Shown piece after piece: positions 41,432 to 60,430 of a stretch of 64,000 nt of DNA. The DNA lies in the NCBI RefSeq assembly GCF_009834535.1, contig NC_045696.1, positions 87,980,001 through 88,044,000 of the forward strand. Direction: 5' to 3'. The notes under the pieces were generated by a model. That model saw nothing but the letters and a program-made list of their open reading frames with translations, had not been told where the DNA came from and did no database searches. Position 1 is the first letter of the stretch. Each line of letters starts with the position of its first letter. The DNA is from Camelus ferus (lineage: Eukaryota). The position numbers and the translations under genes were made by a program.

Positions 41432-42345
41432 AACTATGAGAAGCTCTTCGATATTGTTTTAACAAAGATAGAACCCTCCTATCCTAGATGTGGTACCTAA
41501 GAGCTTTAGACTTCTGACTATCCAGACTGGTGTTGTTTACACTCTAAGAAGTTGCTTAGTAGTTGAGTCCAATCAACCAATATCCTGGCTAATTTATTAG
41601 AAAGAACTGGTAGTAATGGGACTAAGTAGGTCTGATTTATCTTTCAGCCAAATCACAAGAAAGTTATAGCCAGGCACTGAACACATACGAAGGAGCTGCT
41701 AGTAATATGAAGAGCAGTATTTATAATGTGGATTTTGTATCATAAAGTGAAAGGAGAACAAGTAGATGTCAGTAGATTCAGAAATTTAAAGCAGCACAGA
41801 ACATATAAAACAGTTGGAGAAGATAAAGAACAAGAGCATGTAGATTAAAGCATGATACTCTGTGGCTCTAGTCAGCTGGATTTTATTCTGTGGATCTTGG
41901 GTAGAAGCTATCTACTTCATGCAGGTGTCAAATATCAAGCTCTCTTTTCTCAAAAATTATCTGATTCTGTCACTATTTACAATAGCCAAGACATGGAAAC
42001 AACCTAAATGTCCATCAACAGATGACTAGATAAACAAGTTGTGGTATATTTATACAATGGAATACTTACTACTCAGCCATAGAAAGAAGAATAAAATAAT
42101 GCCCTTTTCAGCAACATGGATGGACCTGGAGATAATCATTCTAAGTGAAGCAACCCATAAAGAGAAAGAAAATCTACCATATGATATCACTTATATGTGG
42201 AATCAAAAAAAAAAAAAAAAAAAAAAGACAAATGAACTTATTTATAAAACAGAAACAGACTTACAGATATAGAAAACAAACCTGTGGTTACCAGAGGTGA
42301 AGAGGGTGGGAAAGGATAAATTGGGAGTTCATGATTTGCAGACCT

Positions 42346-42670
42346 CCGGAAGCTCCCGGTCCTGAGGCCCCAATGTGATTGGTCGTTGTTCCTGCGCAGC
42401 GTTGTTTCCACGCCGTCCGCATGGCTCCCCGGGGCAGTGAGTCCGGGCGCGACACAAAAAATGCGTCGGAAACGCCGAGGGTAGGGTGTGCAGCTGCCCA
42501 CAGGCCAGCAGGAGAGGTGGGGTGAATGAGCACCACCCGACTTACAGGGAGCCTCGGCGAGTCTGAGGGGAAAAGAGGCGCGGGGGTTGATGGGACGTGG
42601 AGTCCGGCGGGACAGGTCCTGACCCGGAAGTGGTTCCGGGTTGGGCTGGGCTCTCGCCAAGCCTCCGGGT
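42346..42670 (+). promoter_or_regulatory. CpG-rich promoter-like 5' end of the retrocopy
   Basis: About 28 CpG in 325 bp (hand count); CCGGAAG at 42346, CCAAT at 42370, ATTGG at 42378, TGCGCA at 42393, inverted ETS pair ACCCGGAAgtggTTCCGGGT at 42622-42641. Confidence 0.7.
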
Positions 42671-43397
42671 CTGTGCCCAGTGACTGGGGCTGATCCCTTC
42701 CAGGAAAGAAGTCCTGGGCCTCCGTCCGCCTGCCTTTCCACCCAGCTCCCCCTAAACCTGCTCACCTCCCCCTGGGAAGTCTTTCTGGATTTCCACAGCT
42801 CAGGCCCCCCTCTTTACTCAGGCTGCACCGGCGCTCGTCCTTCCCTAGAGTAAAACTGCATGTGGGGACGCTCCCGCACTCAGAGATTAAAATTAAAATG
42901 CAGATCCTTCCCCGGCTGAAGGCTCTGCAAGATCGCCCTGGCCTTTGCATTTGCTGATTCCACTGCCCAGTCTGTCCTGCGCTCTAGCTGTCATCTCAGG
43001 CACCTGAGGGTGAGGGGCCCCCAGGTTGGGTGCTTCGGATGGGGAGGCCTGGTTCTGCGGAGTCCTGACCACTCTTTAAACACATGCACTGGCATTGAAA
43101 AATATTTGTATTATTTTTTGAAGTTAACAATTGTAATAAATGGCCATTGCAAAAAGAAAAGAAAGAAAATTTCAGATCGTATGCAGACGTTACAAAGGGA
43201 AAAAAAGACGTCCTACAATTCCTTTCCTCAGAATTGCCAGCTGAAGATTTGGTGGTTTTCAGGATTCTTTTCTGAACATTTGTAGCAGTAGCTCCTGTTT
43301 GTTGGTTTAAAATGTTAAAATCAGTGGGATCATGTCGAGGAGGGGGACAGTTCACTTTCCTGTTTAGCATTGTAGAGTGAACGTTTCTCCATGTCCA

Positions 43398-43525
43398 GTT
43401 TTTGGTGGGGGTAGGGTGGTAATTACGTTTATTTATTCTTTCTTAAAGGAGGTATTGGAGATTGAATCCAGGACCTCATTCATGCTTAGCATGCACTCTA
43501 CCACTTGAGCTGTACCCTCCCCCCC
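43398..43525 (-). mobile_element. tRNA-derived SINE (camelid Vic-1-like) inside the retrocopy
   Basis: Reverse complement reads ggggagggtacagctcaagtggtagagtgcatgctaagcatgaatgaggtcctggattcaatctcc (A and B boxes); flanks CTCCATGTCCA / CTCAATGTCCA. Confidence 0.85.
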
Positions 43526-44126
43526 CTCAATGTCCATTGTTGACCTTTACTAGTTGAGTTGAGCCAGGCTTCTCAGGCTCCACAGGAGTCTGCCATGAGG
43601 GAAAGAAGGCCTTCCAGTGAAGGGGCGATTCTTGCTGTACCTGTGCGGCTGCACTGCGTTGGTCTGTCATTGCATCTGTCCCTCTCATCACTCTTTCTAG
43701 AGCCCCACAGACAGCATCCTTTACTTGTGCAGAGCCACCTTGGGCTCGGACCCTCTACTAGTTCCCGCCAGCACCTCTGCTTGGCTACTGGCAGGGTTCT
43801 CTCTGTCACATGTCCACACCTTGTCCCCTAGAGCAGCCCTCCTGCCTTGGCCCAGTCTGGCCTGAGCTCCTGAAAGCTTCCCTGTCCTCCCATCCAGATT
43901 CCCAGTGTGAGGCGTCCTCTTGAGGGCACAGGTAGGGAGGTCAAGGTTGAAGGTGTCCCTGGCCAGGTTTGGGGACAGTTTCCCTCACAGCAAGTGGCCT
44001 TGCAGGGTATGTGTGGGTGGAGGGGTGTGGGTGGTAATGGCCCTGATTGGGTGGGTGTGTGTCCCAGGAAGACAGTGTGTGTGGCCTGTGTGAGGGCAGG
44101 GGAGGCCAGCTTCCCCAGGGCTTGCC

Positions 44127-44666
44127 ATGGCAGCCGACCCAGCTTCCATCAATCAGGAAGAACTCATGGTCATCAAGATGGAGGAGGACGAGGCCACCCT
44201 GTGGGACCCTATACCATCCTCCACACCTCAGCCCCAATACCTGTTGCCTGGGCTTGGCAGGGATCCCCGGCAGCGATTCCGCAGCTTCCGCTACCAGGAG
44301 GTAGCAGGACCCCTCGAGGGCCTAGCCCTGCCACAGGAGCTGTGCCACCAGTGGCTGTGGCCCGAGATGCACTTCAAGGAGCAGATGCTGGAGCTGCTGG
44401 TGCTGGAGCAGTTCCTGGGCGCGCTGCCACGCGACACCCAGGTCTGGGTGGAATCCCAGTGCCCTGAGAGTGAGGAAGAGGCTGTGGCGCTGGTGGAGGA
44501 CCTCGATCAGATGCAGGAGACCGCTGAGCCCCAAGGGGTTGGGGCTGGTGAGGAGGCCTGGGGGCAGGGGACGTGCAAGGGGCCACAACCCCAGGCCCTG
44601 AGTGCCTGCCCGTTCTGCCCAGGCCACCGTGTCCTCATAGGCGGGAAGAGGATTCAGAAGCTATGA
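44127..44666 (+). CDS. Open 179-aa ORF with a SCAN (leucine-rich) domain at aa ~48-126; C-terminal tail probably read-through into a retained intron; coding status unproven
   Basis: [15 protein letters not shown]...[27 protein letters not shown]...[19 protein letters not shown] matches the SCAN signature; Kozak gccATGG; acceptor ttccccAG at 44117-44118; donor CTG|GTGAGG at 44548. Confidence 0.7.
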
Positions 44667-45208
44667 TGTGTTTGTAGACTTTTCTAACCTCTGAGCCTCC
44701 CAGAGGTGTGAGCCTGAGGTTGGCGTTGCATCTCTCGGGCTTAGGGTCACTGGGCCTTTGTTCTCTTCTGTTTCTCCTTCCTCGCAAATTCACCGAGTGC
44801 ACCCAGGCCCTGTGGATCCAGCACGGAAGGGAAATAGGCAAGGTCCTTGGCCTGTTGGAGCCCAGTCTGGGTTGAGAGCTCGACAGTGAGACCACCAGTC
44901 ACAGGTAGGGTGTCCGTCTTTCTCCAGAAGTGGGTGGAGGCAGCAGTTGGTGACCAGGGAGGTCAGCCTGGCTGGCGTGGCTTTGCAGCTCCTGATGTGT
45001 GGCCCCTGCACCTTGGGCTGCGCGTGTGCTCATGCGCTGCGAGGAGGTGGCAGCAGTGCAGCCTGCAGGAGGGACGGTCGGCTACAGCTGTTGGTCCTCC
45101 CTGGCATTGTTTACTCGTTCACTCACATGCGTCTCTGCAGTTCCTTTTGTCTGCTTGGCCTCTTATATCAAAGGGTAGAAACCATAGTACTTAAACAAAA
45201 GCAGCTTT

Positions 45209-45607
45209 CTTAAGCTATAACCCACCTATCCAAAAATTGCACAATTCGTGGGTTTTATTCATGAGTATATTCAGAAGGTTGTACAACCATCACCCCATAT
45301 CTGATACCATAATTTAGTCTGCTTCAGAGAGACTCCATGCCCCTTAGCAATCTCTCCCCATTCTCCTCTCTCCTGGTACCTTGGTAGTTTTGTGTCTCTG
45401 TGTATTTTCTTACTGTGGATATGCTATCAAATGGCATCAGACAGTATGTGGCTTTTTATGGCTGGCTCCTTTCATTGAGTGTAATGTTTTCAGTGCTCAT
45501 CCAGGCTGCATCGTGTCAGTAACTCACTTATTTTTGTGGCTAAAGAACATGGGCATACCACATTCTGTGTATCTGCTTATCAATAAATGGACATTTGGGT
45601 TGTTTGT
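45209..45607 (-). mobile_element. Old L1M fragment, antisense, forming the 3' end of the retrocopy
   Basis: gttgtacaaccatcacc...gtatgtggctttttatggctggctcctttcattgag...ggacatttgggttgttt. Confidence 0.8.
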
Positions 45608-47854
45608 AAAAAAACAGATTTGCAGACCTAACTAATATACATAAAACAGATAAACAAGTTCATACTGTATAGCACAGGGAAGTATATTCAATATCTTATA
45701 GTAACTAATGATGAAAGAGAATATGAAAACGTATATATATATGTTCATGTATGACTGAAGCATTGTGCTGTACACCAGAAATTGACACAGTTTGTAAACT
45801 GACTATACGTCAATAAATATACATAGAAAAAAAAATTATCTGCTTCTGGATGATACCTAAGAATAATCATCCTGAAGCCTTTGGCTAGGAGTCTTCCAAT
45901 GAGCTGCAGATGTTTATATCTCTTAAACTGGTAGATATATGTTAAGGATCAACCCCTCAAAGCTTTACTATGGTGCTAATGGTTTACAGGTGGCTGATAA
46001 CGTCTATTCCATAGGAATTCAAGGACTGTCTATCTTTGACATCTCTTTCAGAAAACCAAATCTCCACATTTTAAGTTATGCAAAGTTGCTTGGGAGGGTA
46101 TGGAGGGAAAGGCTGCCTGTAGCTGGTGATGATATGACTGTACTGTATAAATCCCTTGTGGCATTTGGTTATGTCTGCTTACAACAGAACAAAGTCTAGG
46201 ACTGAAGGTAATATTTCTAAATTCATGAATCAGCTTGTTTCTAACCTTTAACAAAAAAAAGTTAATGAATGTGAAAAGGAGTCCATTTCATTATCACTAA
46301 GGTCAGTGGAAATACTTTTGACCATGGAAGTTCAAAGGACTCTGAGAGCTTTGAAAATTTTCATTTTAGAATTCTATTCGTGCTTTCCTTCTTTCTCAAA
46401 GATTGAGGGTTTTGCTTTAAAGACCATGAAGTTTCTCAAGTAACAAGGCCTTGAAAATCTCTTAAATGAGAGCTCTAGCAAAATGTGCACTTCATCACTG
46501 GAGAGAGAACGAATGGAAATCAAGCAATTATTTCACCACCATCACAGCTTAGCTCTCTGTCTGGAAAACCTCCAATCAATCCTGAGAATTAACAATGACC
46601 AAGACCTATTTAAAATTCATTCTAGGTATTTGCTAAACAAAGTGCACTTTGAGATTTTCATAGCTTTGGATTGCTGGGCACAGCAAGGTTAGGGCCTTGA
46701 TGAGTAAGCTATGAAATGTGGCTGATTTACTTGTTTTACAGTGTATCTCTCAGGAGCAATTGTATCCTGGAGCAATCATTTACTTATTTTTGCTTAGTCT
46801 CAATATTGTTTAACATAGGAATAGGGAATTAGGCCTGGTCTCAGTAATATATACTATAGAAACAAGAAATTATGTTGGTTTCCATTTTTAAGAGCAAAGA
46901 AGTAAAAGAAACAAAACAAATCAGAGAACTGTGTCTAGAGAAGAACTTTGGGAATGGTTCCTAGCATTAAAACCTACTAGAAACAAATAGATCAGACGCC
47001 TACTATATCTCTAAGATAAATACATTGCCAAAGAAACTCTGGGCTGTGTTTCAAAGTCCTTTGATTTCTTCAAGTCTTAACACACCCCTTGGGCACAATA
47101 AAATTGCACCAGCAAATGATGACTGTGAATGTTGTACAGCTCCCAAGGACTGCATACCCCCCAATTCCTCCTTTGTTGTAGCCATGCAAGATAACAGACA
47201 AAGAGGAATCTTTCATCCAATGGAACCAGGAGCTATACATAATGCCAGACAAGGGAATTGCTTCCAGAGAAAAGAGTCAAAATATAACATCCTCTAGAGG
47301 CCATAGAGGGTCTTCACTATTTTAGCCACTAGACGATGTTAATGTTGTGGACCAGAGACAACTGTGTCTTTTGCAATGTTCTACTTGGGTAAAAGGAAGT
47401 TTTTAGTATGTTATTTTGTCTCTGCTTTGGCATTGTATGTGGGACATATGTGGAACTTATGGGAGGGTAGATAGTTTGTTTTATTTTCTTCTTAGTTCAC
47501 AGATCACCAGAAAACATGGACCCACCTCTAGATTTGAAAAAGAGGATGCTGCATAACAAGAGATCCTAAAGTTGGAGCTAGATGCTCCCTTAGGTTGCCT
47601 CCTTTGGGAGGTGTTTGGGCATGATTTCTTGTCCCTGTGTTATACAATGCTGAGCCCAAGCACATTTTCCTATCCCCATGTTAAAACAATATTGAGACTA
47701 AAGCAAAATTAACTTAGCTACCTCTCTGGGACATAGTTGCTCCTGAAAGGTAAGAATGTGAAAGAGCTCTAAATAGATACAGATATATAGACATACATGT
47801 AGATATAGATGTAGAGTTATAGACATATAGATAATAAATAACCAAAAAGTAGAA

Positions 47855-58609: not shown

Positions 58610-60430
58610 ACTCTATTCATTCAACAAGTATCTATTTTGTGTCTGCAAACTTTCAGGAACTGTGATAAGCACTACAGATACAAAAATGACAAAGATATAC
58701 TTTCTGCTCTCAAGTTGCTTAATCTTCACAGATACACATGTGTCAAGATCATTCCCAAAGGGGATATTAAGAGCTGTGGAAATGGAGTAATGAAAGCAGG
58801 CAAGAAGGCTATTTACTCTAGCCTAGGATGAAGATTCAGGTGCTAAAGAACAATGACAACTGAGAGTCTGAAAGAACAAACAGAATTTGTTCAGGGAGAT
58901 TCCAATCAAGGAAGTCACTGGATCAGCTATATGTTGAACCAACAGGAGGTCCTGACCCATTAAACAAGAGGCTGAAATAAACTGCACTTTTAAAAACATT
59001 GGCTTTTGGCTTCATCATGAAGTTAGGAACTATAGAAAAAAAAGAGAAGTGGCTTCTGAGAGAAAGGAAGATAAAATATGGACACTATGAGTTTCAAGTA
59101 CCTTTGAGAAATTCCAATGTAGTTAGCAGGAACTTTGATATATGGGCTGGAACTAATTTTTCTAAGTGGCTTGTCCTACAAATATATATTAAGGAGTTGT
59201 CAGCATCTAGATGACACCTGGCACCACGAAGGTAAATGGCATCCTGAGAAGAGAATGCAGAGGAGAGAAGAGGTACAAAAATGGAACCCTAGGGGACACA
59301 TCATGCCTCGAAAACCAATAGAGCAGAATTTCAAAAAGAGAGTGGTCAATAATTCATATCCAGAGAGAGAGAGGAAAGTCAGATTAGTACTAAAATATGT
59401 CCTTTGATTTTAGCAACAACCTTGACAATGGCAGGTTCAGTTTGTGGAACATGATTATACGGCTTGAATAATGAATATAAGTCACACGAGTGTGGATGGG
59501 ACTATAAATGACTGTTACACTTTTGAGAGGCTTAGTGATGAAGGGGAGGGAAGGTCAGGTAGTACCTAGAGTCTTTGTTTTTGTGGTTTGTTTATTTAAT
59601 GTAGGATAGAAATGTGAGCACGTTTATATGCTTAGAGAAAGCTCCATCACATAAAATAAAAGATGCGGCAAAGAAAACAGGGCAAGAACACTGAGAGTGA
59701 AGCTGAGTCAACAGGGATCAGCTCTAGCTGGAGTCCGTCATTCCTCTATCCTAACCCAGCCACGGTCCACAAGGTCCCGAGCTGCTTCCCTGACCCTGCT
59801 TCTCCTCCCACATCGCCTGTTGTTCATTCCACGTCAGACACACTGGCCTCTGCTGTCCTCAAACGTGCCAAGCACACTCCAGCCTCTGAGCCTGGGTCCC
59901 TTCTCTTTACTGCTCCTAGAGAGTACTTCTTTCAGGATCTTCAGGGCTCCTTTCCCAAGTTCCTCCAAGTCTCTGAGCAGATATTTCCTCATCAGTGAGG
60001 TCTTCCATGACCTCTCTAGTATATAAAGTGGCAATGACTCCCTTGTCCCCAGCACTCTCCAGCCCTCTTAATTTTCTCTTTTTTTCTTTCTTCTTTTTCT
60101 TTTTTTGGTGGGGGGAGGGGGTTATTAAGTTTGTTTAATTTTTTTAATGGAATGTACCGGGGATTGAAGCCAGGACCTCATGCATGCTAAAAAGTACGTA
60201 TTCTACCACTGAGCTATACCCTCCCCCCTTGTATTTTTCGATAGTTCTTATCACATTCTGACATATTATAAATCTGCTTGTTTATCTACTTATTATCTGC
60301 CTTCTTTCTCTAATATGTAAATATCATCATGAAAGTTAAATGTATTTATTTAAAATATCATATTTCTGGTGTCTAAACAGTGACTGCACTTGATAGGTGC
60401 CCAAATAAATAGCAGTTAATGAATGAATTC
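58610..60430. mobile_element. L2 fragments (minus ~58610-59620; plus ~59700-60430)
   Basis: tattcattcaacaagtatctatt at 58614; acactggcctctgctgtcctcaaacgtgccaagcac at ~59840; ataggtgcccaaataaatagcagttaatgaatgaa at ~60395. Confidence 0.75.
60072..60228 (-). mobile_element. tRNA-derived SINE (camelid Vic-1-like)
   Basis: ggggattgaagccaggacctcatgcatgct...tctaccactgagctataccctccccc; same family as 43398-43525. Confidence 0.85.

Follow-up and report, generated by a model that had tools for sequence, protein, structure and literature searches.

An old L1 element of Camelus ferus carries a probable intron-retaining retrocopy of the first part of a SCAN-Tigger fusion gene

How does a GC-rich block with splice-like motifs come to lie in the middle of an L1 3' end, and what was copied there? 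A sequence-only reading of a 64,000-nt stretch of Camelus ferus DNA (NC_045696.1:87,980,001-88,044,000, forward strand; this whole stretch is the window in the following and sets the position numbers) had described a GC-rich block of 3271 bp, flanked by an exact 13-bp repeat and ending in AATAAA, a 20-nt spacer and an A-tract, and had explained it as an unspliced retrocopy of a SCAN zinc-finger gene within a young L1. All these structural elements were found in their places (Table 1), and the GC content is 49–61% in the 1-kb bins from 42001 to 45000 compared with 27–46% elsewhere in the window. That the block interrupts an otherwise colinear L1 3' end was borne out by related L1 copies, as 23 out of 29 align over at least 100 bases both left and right of the site, all of them without interruption. 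The repeat GATTTGCAGACCT has two matches in the whole window with up to one mismatch allowed, both flanking the block, against 0.09 ± 0.32 matches in shuffled controls (two were reached in 1 of 100 shuffles). The base preceding the left duplication is A in 27 of 28 L1 relatives, as it is before the right copy, and the left copy carries T at the reconstructed nick position; the original duplication was probably 14–15 bp long.

Table 1: Features of the proposed retrocopy and its host L1 in window coordinates.
Feature	Position	Strand	Remarks
Left target-site duplication of host L1, 18 bp	41952..41969	+	1 mismatch to right copy
5' piece of host element, 5'-truncated camelid L1 3' end	41970..42345	+	alignment with L1 relatives
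Left target-site duplication of retrocopy, 13 bp	42333..42345	+	exact GATTTGCAGACCT
5' junction	42344..42353	+	alternatives: 2 untemplated bases, or 10-nt match to C9:6729008 plus short deletion
Retrocopy, 3271 bp	42346..45616	+	42348-45608 colinear with G000:C9:6728982-6725719, minus strand
Copy of CpG-island (promoter-proximal) segment	42348..42900	+	CpG count: 34 in copy, 49 in parent
SINE	43406..43530		in parent before copying; many 84-91% matches genome-wide
Possible 34-nt 5'-UTR mini-exon	43898..43931	+	AG and GT conserved between copy and parent; motif level only
SCAN exon	44119..44523	+	3' border from orthologous proteins
Open 179-aa frame, SCAN domain plus intron read-through	44127..44666	+	ZSCAN12 in dromedary assembly
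Intron start, 1.08 kb out of 3.4 kb, directly following the SCAN exon	44524..45607	+	next exon at C9:6723365-6723282
Old antisense L1 fragment carrying poly(A) signal	45490..45607	-	65-77% matches to opposite-strand L1 copies
AATAAA	45582..45587	+	parent counterpart at C9:6725744
A7 tail	45608..45614	+	first A alone templated by parent; CA follows
Right target-site duplication of retrocopy, 13 bp	45617..45629	+	exact GATTTGCAGACCT
3' piece of host L1, own AATAAA and A-rich end	45630..45830	+	alignment with L1 relatives
Right target-site duplication of host L1	45831..45848	+	pairs with 41952..41969

The expected contiguous genomic match including introns does exist, as one long match was present among the 40 that were scored out of 4095 candidates, located at C9:6728982-6725719. 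It aligns 3261 bases of the copy with 3264 of the parent, and its 38 gaps reach at most 20 nt, so that an intron-sized gap, as left by introns removed from one of the two, is absent from the alignment. Both sequences differ by 11.5% overall (non-CpG K2P 0.098, 0.087–0.111). A spliced sibling copy was not found, the SINE-free 5' kilobase matching only the copy itself and the parent. Homology ends at both junctions and the donor locus is distant and intact; the sequence-only reading had named parent homology past the duplications as the sign of a DNA-level duplication, and none was found when 1 kb upstream and 2 kb downstream of the parent were compared with the window. A segmental duplication was rejected, since no homology runs past the element into either flank.

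The same reading was right in assigning the parent to the SCAN genes and wrong in assuming the zinc-finger type, as judged by sequence comparison the parent is a SCAN-Tigger transposase fusion gene adjoining MZF1. A SCAN zinc-finger parent was rejected because no C2H2 pattern occurs on the minus strand of C9:6692001-6752000, and the 13-finger array of this region belongs to an MZF1-like gene on the opposite strand, which we take to be MZF1 itself from its protein and its neighbour. Human CENPBD2P presumably adjoins MZF1. No link to CENPBD2P could be gained from PMC11929002, the available part of which leaves SCAN domains, MZF1 and Tigger unmentioned. Orthologues P0002, P0006 and P0011 have SCAN, CENP-B_N, HTH_Tnp_Tc5 and DDE_1 in a single protein and marsupial proteins carry SCAN and DDE_1, the orthologous fusion transcripts being database gene models. 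The fusion is intact in whales, ruminants, mole and marsupials and broken in camelids, the SCAN exon of this genome being frameshifted and its Tigger exon carrying a stop as well as frameshifts. The Tigger exon matches itself, its neighbour and one 73–78% fragment on C21, and no others. According to the part of the work available to us, host-transposase fusion genes arise with host domains, SCAN among those named, spliced to a transposase exon (bioRxiv 10.1101/2020.05.07.082677); the parent resembles the fusions described there in its SCAN domain and transposase exon and differs in that the camelid gene is broken.

The copy extends from the CpG island of the parent to 1.08 kb into the intron following the SCAN exon, the intronic nature of this last part being shown by mapping of whale, hippo, deer and mole proteins, which place the following exons at distances of 3.4 kb and 5.6 kb downstream. 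From the island start and the intronic end, an unspliced and intronically polyadenylated RNA was most likely copied by L1. In the parent, CpG sites are retained more often in the island (21/27) than elsewhere (17/44, p=0.002), as for a genuine promoter, and the idea that the copy kept a promoter free of methylation was rejected, its own difference being non-significant (21/33 versus 17/38, p=0.15). The splice-like motifs described earlier (acceptors at 43700, 43897 and 44118, donors at 43932, 44548 and 44905) were located correctly within 1–2 bases, but 44548 had to be rejected as donor of the SCAN exon, which orthologous proteins put at 44524, where the parent has GT and the copy CT. The donor-like 44905 is present in both sequences, but its position is intronic. 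Against a background of 21 sites resembling acceptors and 10 resembling donors in copy or parent, the upstream splice sites are guesses, candidates at the motif level.

At the 3' end the AATAAA used lies in an antisense L1 fragment, which in the parent runs about 140 nt further beyond the end of the copy, and at this position the usual sequence in L1 relatives is TGTTGA, TGTCGA or TGTCAA. Where the copy has A7 after the 20-nt spacer the parent reads CCTCTTGG. Break positions 10–30 nt after any AATAAA make up 0.8% of the positions in 7782 nt; an earlier AATAAA at 43135 is not the one used for the 3' end. For the second alternative at the 5' junction (Table 1), there would be a 2-nt microhomology with the duplication and a deletion between two GGAAGC words.

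Taken together, we consider it likely that L1 target-primed reverse transcription gave rise to the block, as a copy of the SCAN-Tigger gene's first 3.26 kb with intron sequence kept. The proposal of an unspliced, prematurely polyadenylated template has thus held up, with a colinear source, introns kept and an end 20 nt after AATAAA. Transcription would have started in the CpG island, and the RNA, still unspliced, would likely have been cleaved and polyadenylated at the intronic AATAAA downstream of the SCAN exon. L1 ORF2p may then have cut one strand of the host L1 at a degenerate site, reconstructed from relatives as roughly 5'-TCTT/GA-3', followed by priming on the tail. Introns that are removed from the normal mRNA would have lain in the 1.8 kb preceding the ATG. 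The event may date to the stem lineage of camelids, earlier than the divergence of Camelus and Vicugna and near the time when constraint on the parent was lost, and the copy would have drifted neutrally ever since.

The host L1 had been called young, which its distances contradict. Near-identical genomic copies are absent among the 40 that were scored out of 5774 candidates, the best of these reaching 87–90% and the best relatives scored overall being 87–92% identical, and the non-CpG K2P to 18 relatives is 0.091–0.131 (about 0.11) after 11 of 29 copies with fewer than 400 aligned columns each had been dropped. Measured in this way host L1 and insertion are both old and neither is young. The protein distance between copy and parent is 3.4 times (2.0–5.8) the Camelus-Vicugna distance at the parent gene, two different exons being compared, and the parent's loss of constraint lies at about 3.8 times that distance, with columns gapped in any outgroup excluded and the mole protein as outlier (40/275 changes); copying and loss of constraint are about equally old. 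A rate was sought in PMC6946651, which gives none. As host L1 and copy are both old, alpaca and llama probably have no empty site, so that the empty-site test would probably fail in living camelids. Being old and found in a dromedary assembly too, the insertion is probably fixed in the population.

The open frame of the copy raises the possibility of a functional SCAN-only retrogene that inherited part of the parent's role. The SCAN frame is fully open in the copy and frameshifted in the parent, and the predicted misannotation as a ZSCAN locus is real, since KAB1283119.1 ('ZSCAN12', GenBank) from dromedary is this frame with two amino-acid differences. In neutral simulations the frame stays open with a probability of 0.025–0.27, the plain NG86 dN/dS is 0.40 (p=0.003), and the CpG island was copied along. 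The low dN/dS results from a high synonymous divergence (14/60 at 4-fold sites; non-CpG 9/49 versus 20/220 at 0-fold sites, p=0.07), however, and the 0-fold non-CpG divergence equals that of non-coding sequence (230/2556, p=0.90), so the 179-aa frame diverges at the neutral rate without sign of selection at 0-fold sites. The copy branch shows 13 changes including one Leu-to-Pro at an invariant SCAN position, and R63L, A65G, R68L, L69P and R70Q strike the conserved SCAN core. With the non-significant island CpG retention and no Lamini protein among 23 matches, we regard a working retrogene as very improbable; the copy is probably a dead fossil.

The L1 route could also have used a regular mature short isoform with a long unspliced leader, the SCAN exon and the poly(A) site in the intron, in place of a precursor still awaiting splicing; such an isoform was perhaps the principal RNA of a gene already failing. 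It would agree with upstream splice motifs no stronger than many others, with the A at -1 of the parent's SCAN donor and GG instead of AG before its next exon, and with 11 amino-acid changes common to copy and parent, 4 of them where all other sequences are invariant, together with one shared codon deletion, from which decay possibly began before copying. A leader of 1789 nt with 17 upstream ATGs and one SINE is unlike a translated 5' UTR, however, and because of these features introns fit this region better; in cattle, deer, whales and koala, the existence of several RefSeq transcripts for an identical orthologous protein also suggests alternatively spliced UTRs, and we find this isoform rather unlikely. 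In unaligned reads the word share of the parent stretch is 0.87–0.90 in 14 DNA or unlabelled runs and 0.15–0.47 in 6 RNA runs, the computed shares being about 0.5 for RNA equal to exactly the copied part and about 0.13 for spliced RNA; such shares from unaligned reads do not count as evidence. A DNA-level duplication or repair patch, its direct repeat stemming from a staggered break, would account for the lack of splicing, the short tail and the possible microhomology; it is largely refuted by the non-templated A7 20 nt past AATAAA, the 13-bp duplication, the start inside the promoter island, the sense orientation and the homology confined between the junctions. An assembly artefact has a negligible chance considering the divergence from the parent, a window free of N bases and the dromedary frame. 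Observations that sit less well with the L1-mediated unspliced copy are the tail of only seven A, the degenerate nick site, the dN/dS, the small neutral chance of a frame staying open and the unused AATAAA.

The mechanism itself is already known and the copy is of a known kind. As far as PMC4151081 was available, processed pseudogenes are characterized there by similarity to the parent transcript, loss of all or most introns, a poly(A) tail and a 5–20-nt target-site duplication; our copy shares similarity, tail and duplication but has lost no intron, which also separates it from semi-processed pseudogenes, with which it has retained intronic sequence in common. The TMF1 pseudogene in CYBB described in the same part is likewise an L1-type copy of a transcript ended at an intronic poly(A) signal with intron sequence kept, yet there exons 1–7 were spliced in a new disease insertion, whereas in the camel copy nothing was removed, the start is in the promoter island, and the insertion is old and at or near fixation. 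Class 1 templated insertions, in the portion of PMC5110952 at hand, show a duplication of at least 5 bp, a poly(A) 10–30 nt after a cryptic signal, 10–40 non-templated A and insertion at 5'-TTTT/A-3'. The camel copy resembles them in its duplication, the AATAAA 20 nt before the tail, a distant intact donor and an intronic template (theirs are intronic or unannotated), but those are human polymorphisms, while it is 3.3 kb long, ancient and contains a whole coding exon, and it retains seven A at a drift of about 5% along each branch. Rodent preproinsulin I, as covered by the parts of PMC4151081 and PMC5470649 available, is also a retrocopy with an intron kept, but it lost one of two introns and is a working gene, whereas the camel copy lost none and looks neutral.

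More speculatively, the RNA preserved in this copy could be the one that brought a therian-wide SCAN-Tigger gene to its end in camelids. Point mutations in the antisense L1 would have created the intronic AATAAA, transcripts would have stopped short of the transposase exon without being spliced, selection would have lapsed, and L1 would have archived one of them then. We consider this scenario unlikely. Retrocopy screens demand lost introns, for example at least 3 exons and at most 2 retained introns (bioRxiv 2020.06.07.139212), and because of this such copies are missed or annotated as real ZSCAN genes.

In summary, the parent represents a little noticed SCAN-Tigger fusion gene, whose conservation reaches from marsupials to whales and which was lost in camelids. 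Its likely copy would be a record, with a date attached, of an RNA that was left unspliced, ended within an intron and reached the L1 machinery of the germ line.

The two copies of the 13-mer GATTTGCAGACCT, which occurs at no other place in the window (expected matches in shuffled sequence: mean 0.09), enclose 3271 GC-rich bases that end in AATAAA, 20 bases, A7 and CA. Both the exact direct repeat and the end with hexamer, 20-nt spacer and A-tract are thus present as the sequence-only reading had described them. Both flanks belong to the 3' end of a single, 5'-truncated L1, and among 29 related L1 copies fetched all 23 that cover at least 100 bases on each side are uninterrupted. This host L1 had been called young, which its closest relatives do not bear out, as they show 87–92% identity (40 scored of 5774 candidates), with a non-CpG distance of 0.091–0.131 to 18 copies.

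A Camelus protein at 99% identity marks the genome as that of a camel. The sole long match to the block, among 40 scored of 4095 candidates, is the parent gene on C9 of the same genome (G000:C9:6728982-6725719, minus strand), and the SINE-free first kilobase of the block matches only itself and this site. A further SINE of the type inside the block, 79% identical, is located at 60109-60228. Copy (42348-45608) and parent are colinear over 3261 and 3264 bases with 38 gaps, the largest being 20 bases, and a search with the parent flanks against the window gave no match. As anticipated, the block has one contiguous, intron-containing source at a single distant site, and the homology is confined to it.

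The parent had been proposed to be a SCAN-zinc finger gene. However, no zinc fingers are found on its strand within C9:6692001-6752000, and the SCAN frame finds its best full-length relatives in proteins of 738–769 residues from whales, hippo, deer and mole carrying SCAN, CENP-B_N, HTH_Tnp_Tc5 and DDE_1, i.e. SCAN plus Tigger transposase. The SCAN plus DDE_1 layout also occurs in koala, possum and devil; whales, hippo, ruminants, mole and marsupials all have the fusion gene in intact form. From the exon map obtained with the orthologous proteins (see table) it follows that the copy stops 1.08 kb inside a 3.4-kb intron; the SCAN exon donor corresponds to 44524, where the parent has GT and the copy CT. 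Just upstream the parent adjoins an intact Tigger frame of 699 codons (G000:C9:6733583-6731487; CENP-B_N, HTH_Tnp_Tc5, DDE_1), which stands head to head with an MZF1-like gene; a UBE2M-like gene is a further neighbour. In cetaceans there are models in which one set of SCAN exons is linked to either of two Tigger exons (types of the orthologous proteins P0002 and P0006) that are ~45% identical; the P0002 type has no exon of its own in C9:6692001-6752000. Fragments of a related Tigger exon (73–78%) lie at G000:C21:29732786-29733306. Our literature search on locus and gene found no description; the fusion tables of bioRxiv 2020.05.07.082677 may include the gene, and excerpts of PMC3424704 do not describe it.

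Coordinates of features in the window and at the parent locus on C9
Feature	Position	Strand	Basis
13-mer direct repeat	42333-42345, 45617-45629		
AATAAA at block 3' end	45582-45587		
Host L1 own duplication, 18 bp, one mismatch	41952-41969, 45831-45848		
SCAN exon	C9:6727193 to about 6726800	minus	orthologous proteins mapped
28-codon exon	C9:6723365-6723282	minus	orthologous proteins mapped
Tigger exon	C9:6721224-6719525	minus	orthologous proteins mapped

We infer that the 1.8 kb upstream of the ATG are introns, as the 1789 bases before the start codon contain 17 ATGs and a SINE, an AG precedes it by 8 bases and the orthologous proteins have several RefSeq transcripts each. Against this, the block holds 21 acceptor-like and 10 donor-like motifs, and because of this abundance the splice sites proposed earlier do not stand out.

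An unspliced, intronically ended RNA copied by L1 ORF2p into an older L1 is the likely origin of the block. This RNA would have started in the CpG island into which the 5' end of the block falls, where the parent retains 21 of 27 CpGs vs 17 of 44 elsewhere (p = 0.002), run unspliced through the SCAN exon, been cleaved at TA, 20 bases past the intronic AATAAA, and been copied into a nick. Beyond the 3' break the parent reads CCTCTTGG and the copy has an A run instead; by chance, 0.8% of break positions would fall 10–30 bases past an AATAAA (over 7782 bases). Another AATAAA, with a genomic A run behind it (43135-43170) and also in the parent, was skipped by cleavage and priming alike. The terminal hexamer sits within an old antisense L1 fragment running ~140 bases further in the parent, and it probably arose locally, because the matching place in other L1 copies, younger ones of another subfamily than the fragment, mostly reads TGTTGA, TGTCGA or TGTCAA (10 of 16 anchor matches). 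It seems rather unlikely to us that the template was an ordinary short isoform of a failing gene. At the 5' junction there are two extra bases or, on another reading, a 10-base match a little further upstream (C9:6729008) with 2-base microhomology; with the flanks free of homology, a DNA patch is very improbable, and an artefact can practically be dismissed.

The frame of the copy (44127-44666) is open, and its dromedary version with 2 differences is named ZSCAN12 (KAB1283119.1, ‘Zinc finger and SCAN domain-containing protein 12’) yet has no finger, exactly the misannotation that had been foreseen. An NG86 dN/dS of 0.40 (p = 0.003) and a frame that stays open in 2.5–27% of neutral simulation runs would suit a working SCAN-only retrogene, which we consider improbable: 0-fold non-CpG divergence (20/220) equals the non-coding rate (230/2556, p = 0.90), and the conserved SCAN core of the copy carries five changes. 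We therefore read the copy as evolving neutrally. It is not a processed or semi-processed pseudogene by definition, as no intron was lost, but works like these. Intron-retaining, intronically terminated retrocopies are already in print, namely TMF1 in CYBB (PMC4151081), preproinsulin I (PMC4151081, PMC5470649) and class 1 templated insertions (PMC5110952), and this locus is a further case of this kind.

In Camelus the fusion gene is broken, and in Vicugna its constraint is relaxed. The parent SCAN exon has a one-base deletion, with the shifted tail also in C. ferus EPY90086.1 (268-kb contig), the Tigger exon has a stop and frameshifts, with a shifted C-terminus also in dromedary XP_031313335.1, and the dromedary and alpaca gene models lack SCAN. 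Over 235 columns that do not vary among six outgroups, 14 changes are common to Camelus and Vicugna, which have 4 and 5 of their own, respectively, and in one further column both differ; the matching control gave 3–8 changes in whale, hippo, koala, devil and manatee and 40/275 in mole. As the acceptor of the 28-codon exon in the parent (C9:6723366) is GG, not AG, and the SCAN donor (C9:6726802) has A at -1, the old splice path looks damaged. Copy and parent have 11 changes in common, 4 of them at invariant SCAN positions.

Of 3185 sites compared between copy and parent, 367 differ; leaving out CpG, the count is 267 of 2915 (K2P 0.098, 0.087–0.111). With 1.4e-9 per year, i.e. 7e-9 per 5-year generation, a figure elsewhere stated per year in the same source (PMC7331169), 0.049 per branch gives about 35 million years. 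The ratio of residue differences between copy and parent (27/128) and between this genome and alpaca (29/434) is 3.4 (2.0–5.8), which as an internal check agrees with this date. From divergence and protein ratio the insertion is probably older than the split of Old and New World camels 11–25 million years ago (PMC4884201) and followed soon after the host L1. The parent's loss of constraint lies at ~(14+5)/5 = 3.8 times the Camelus–Vicugna split and, within wide error, falls in the same period as the copying.
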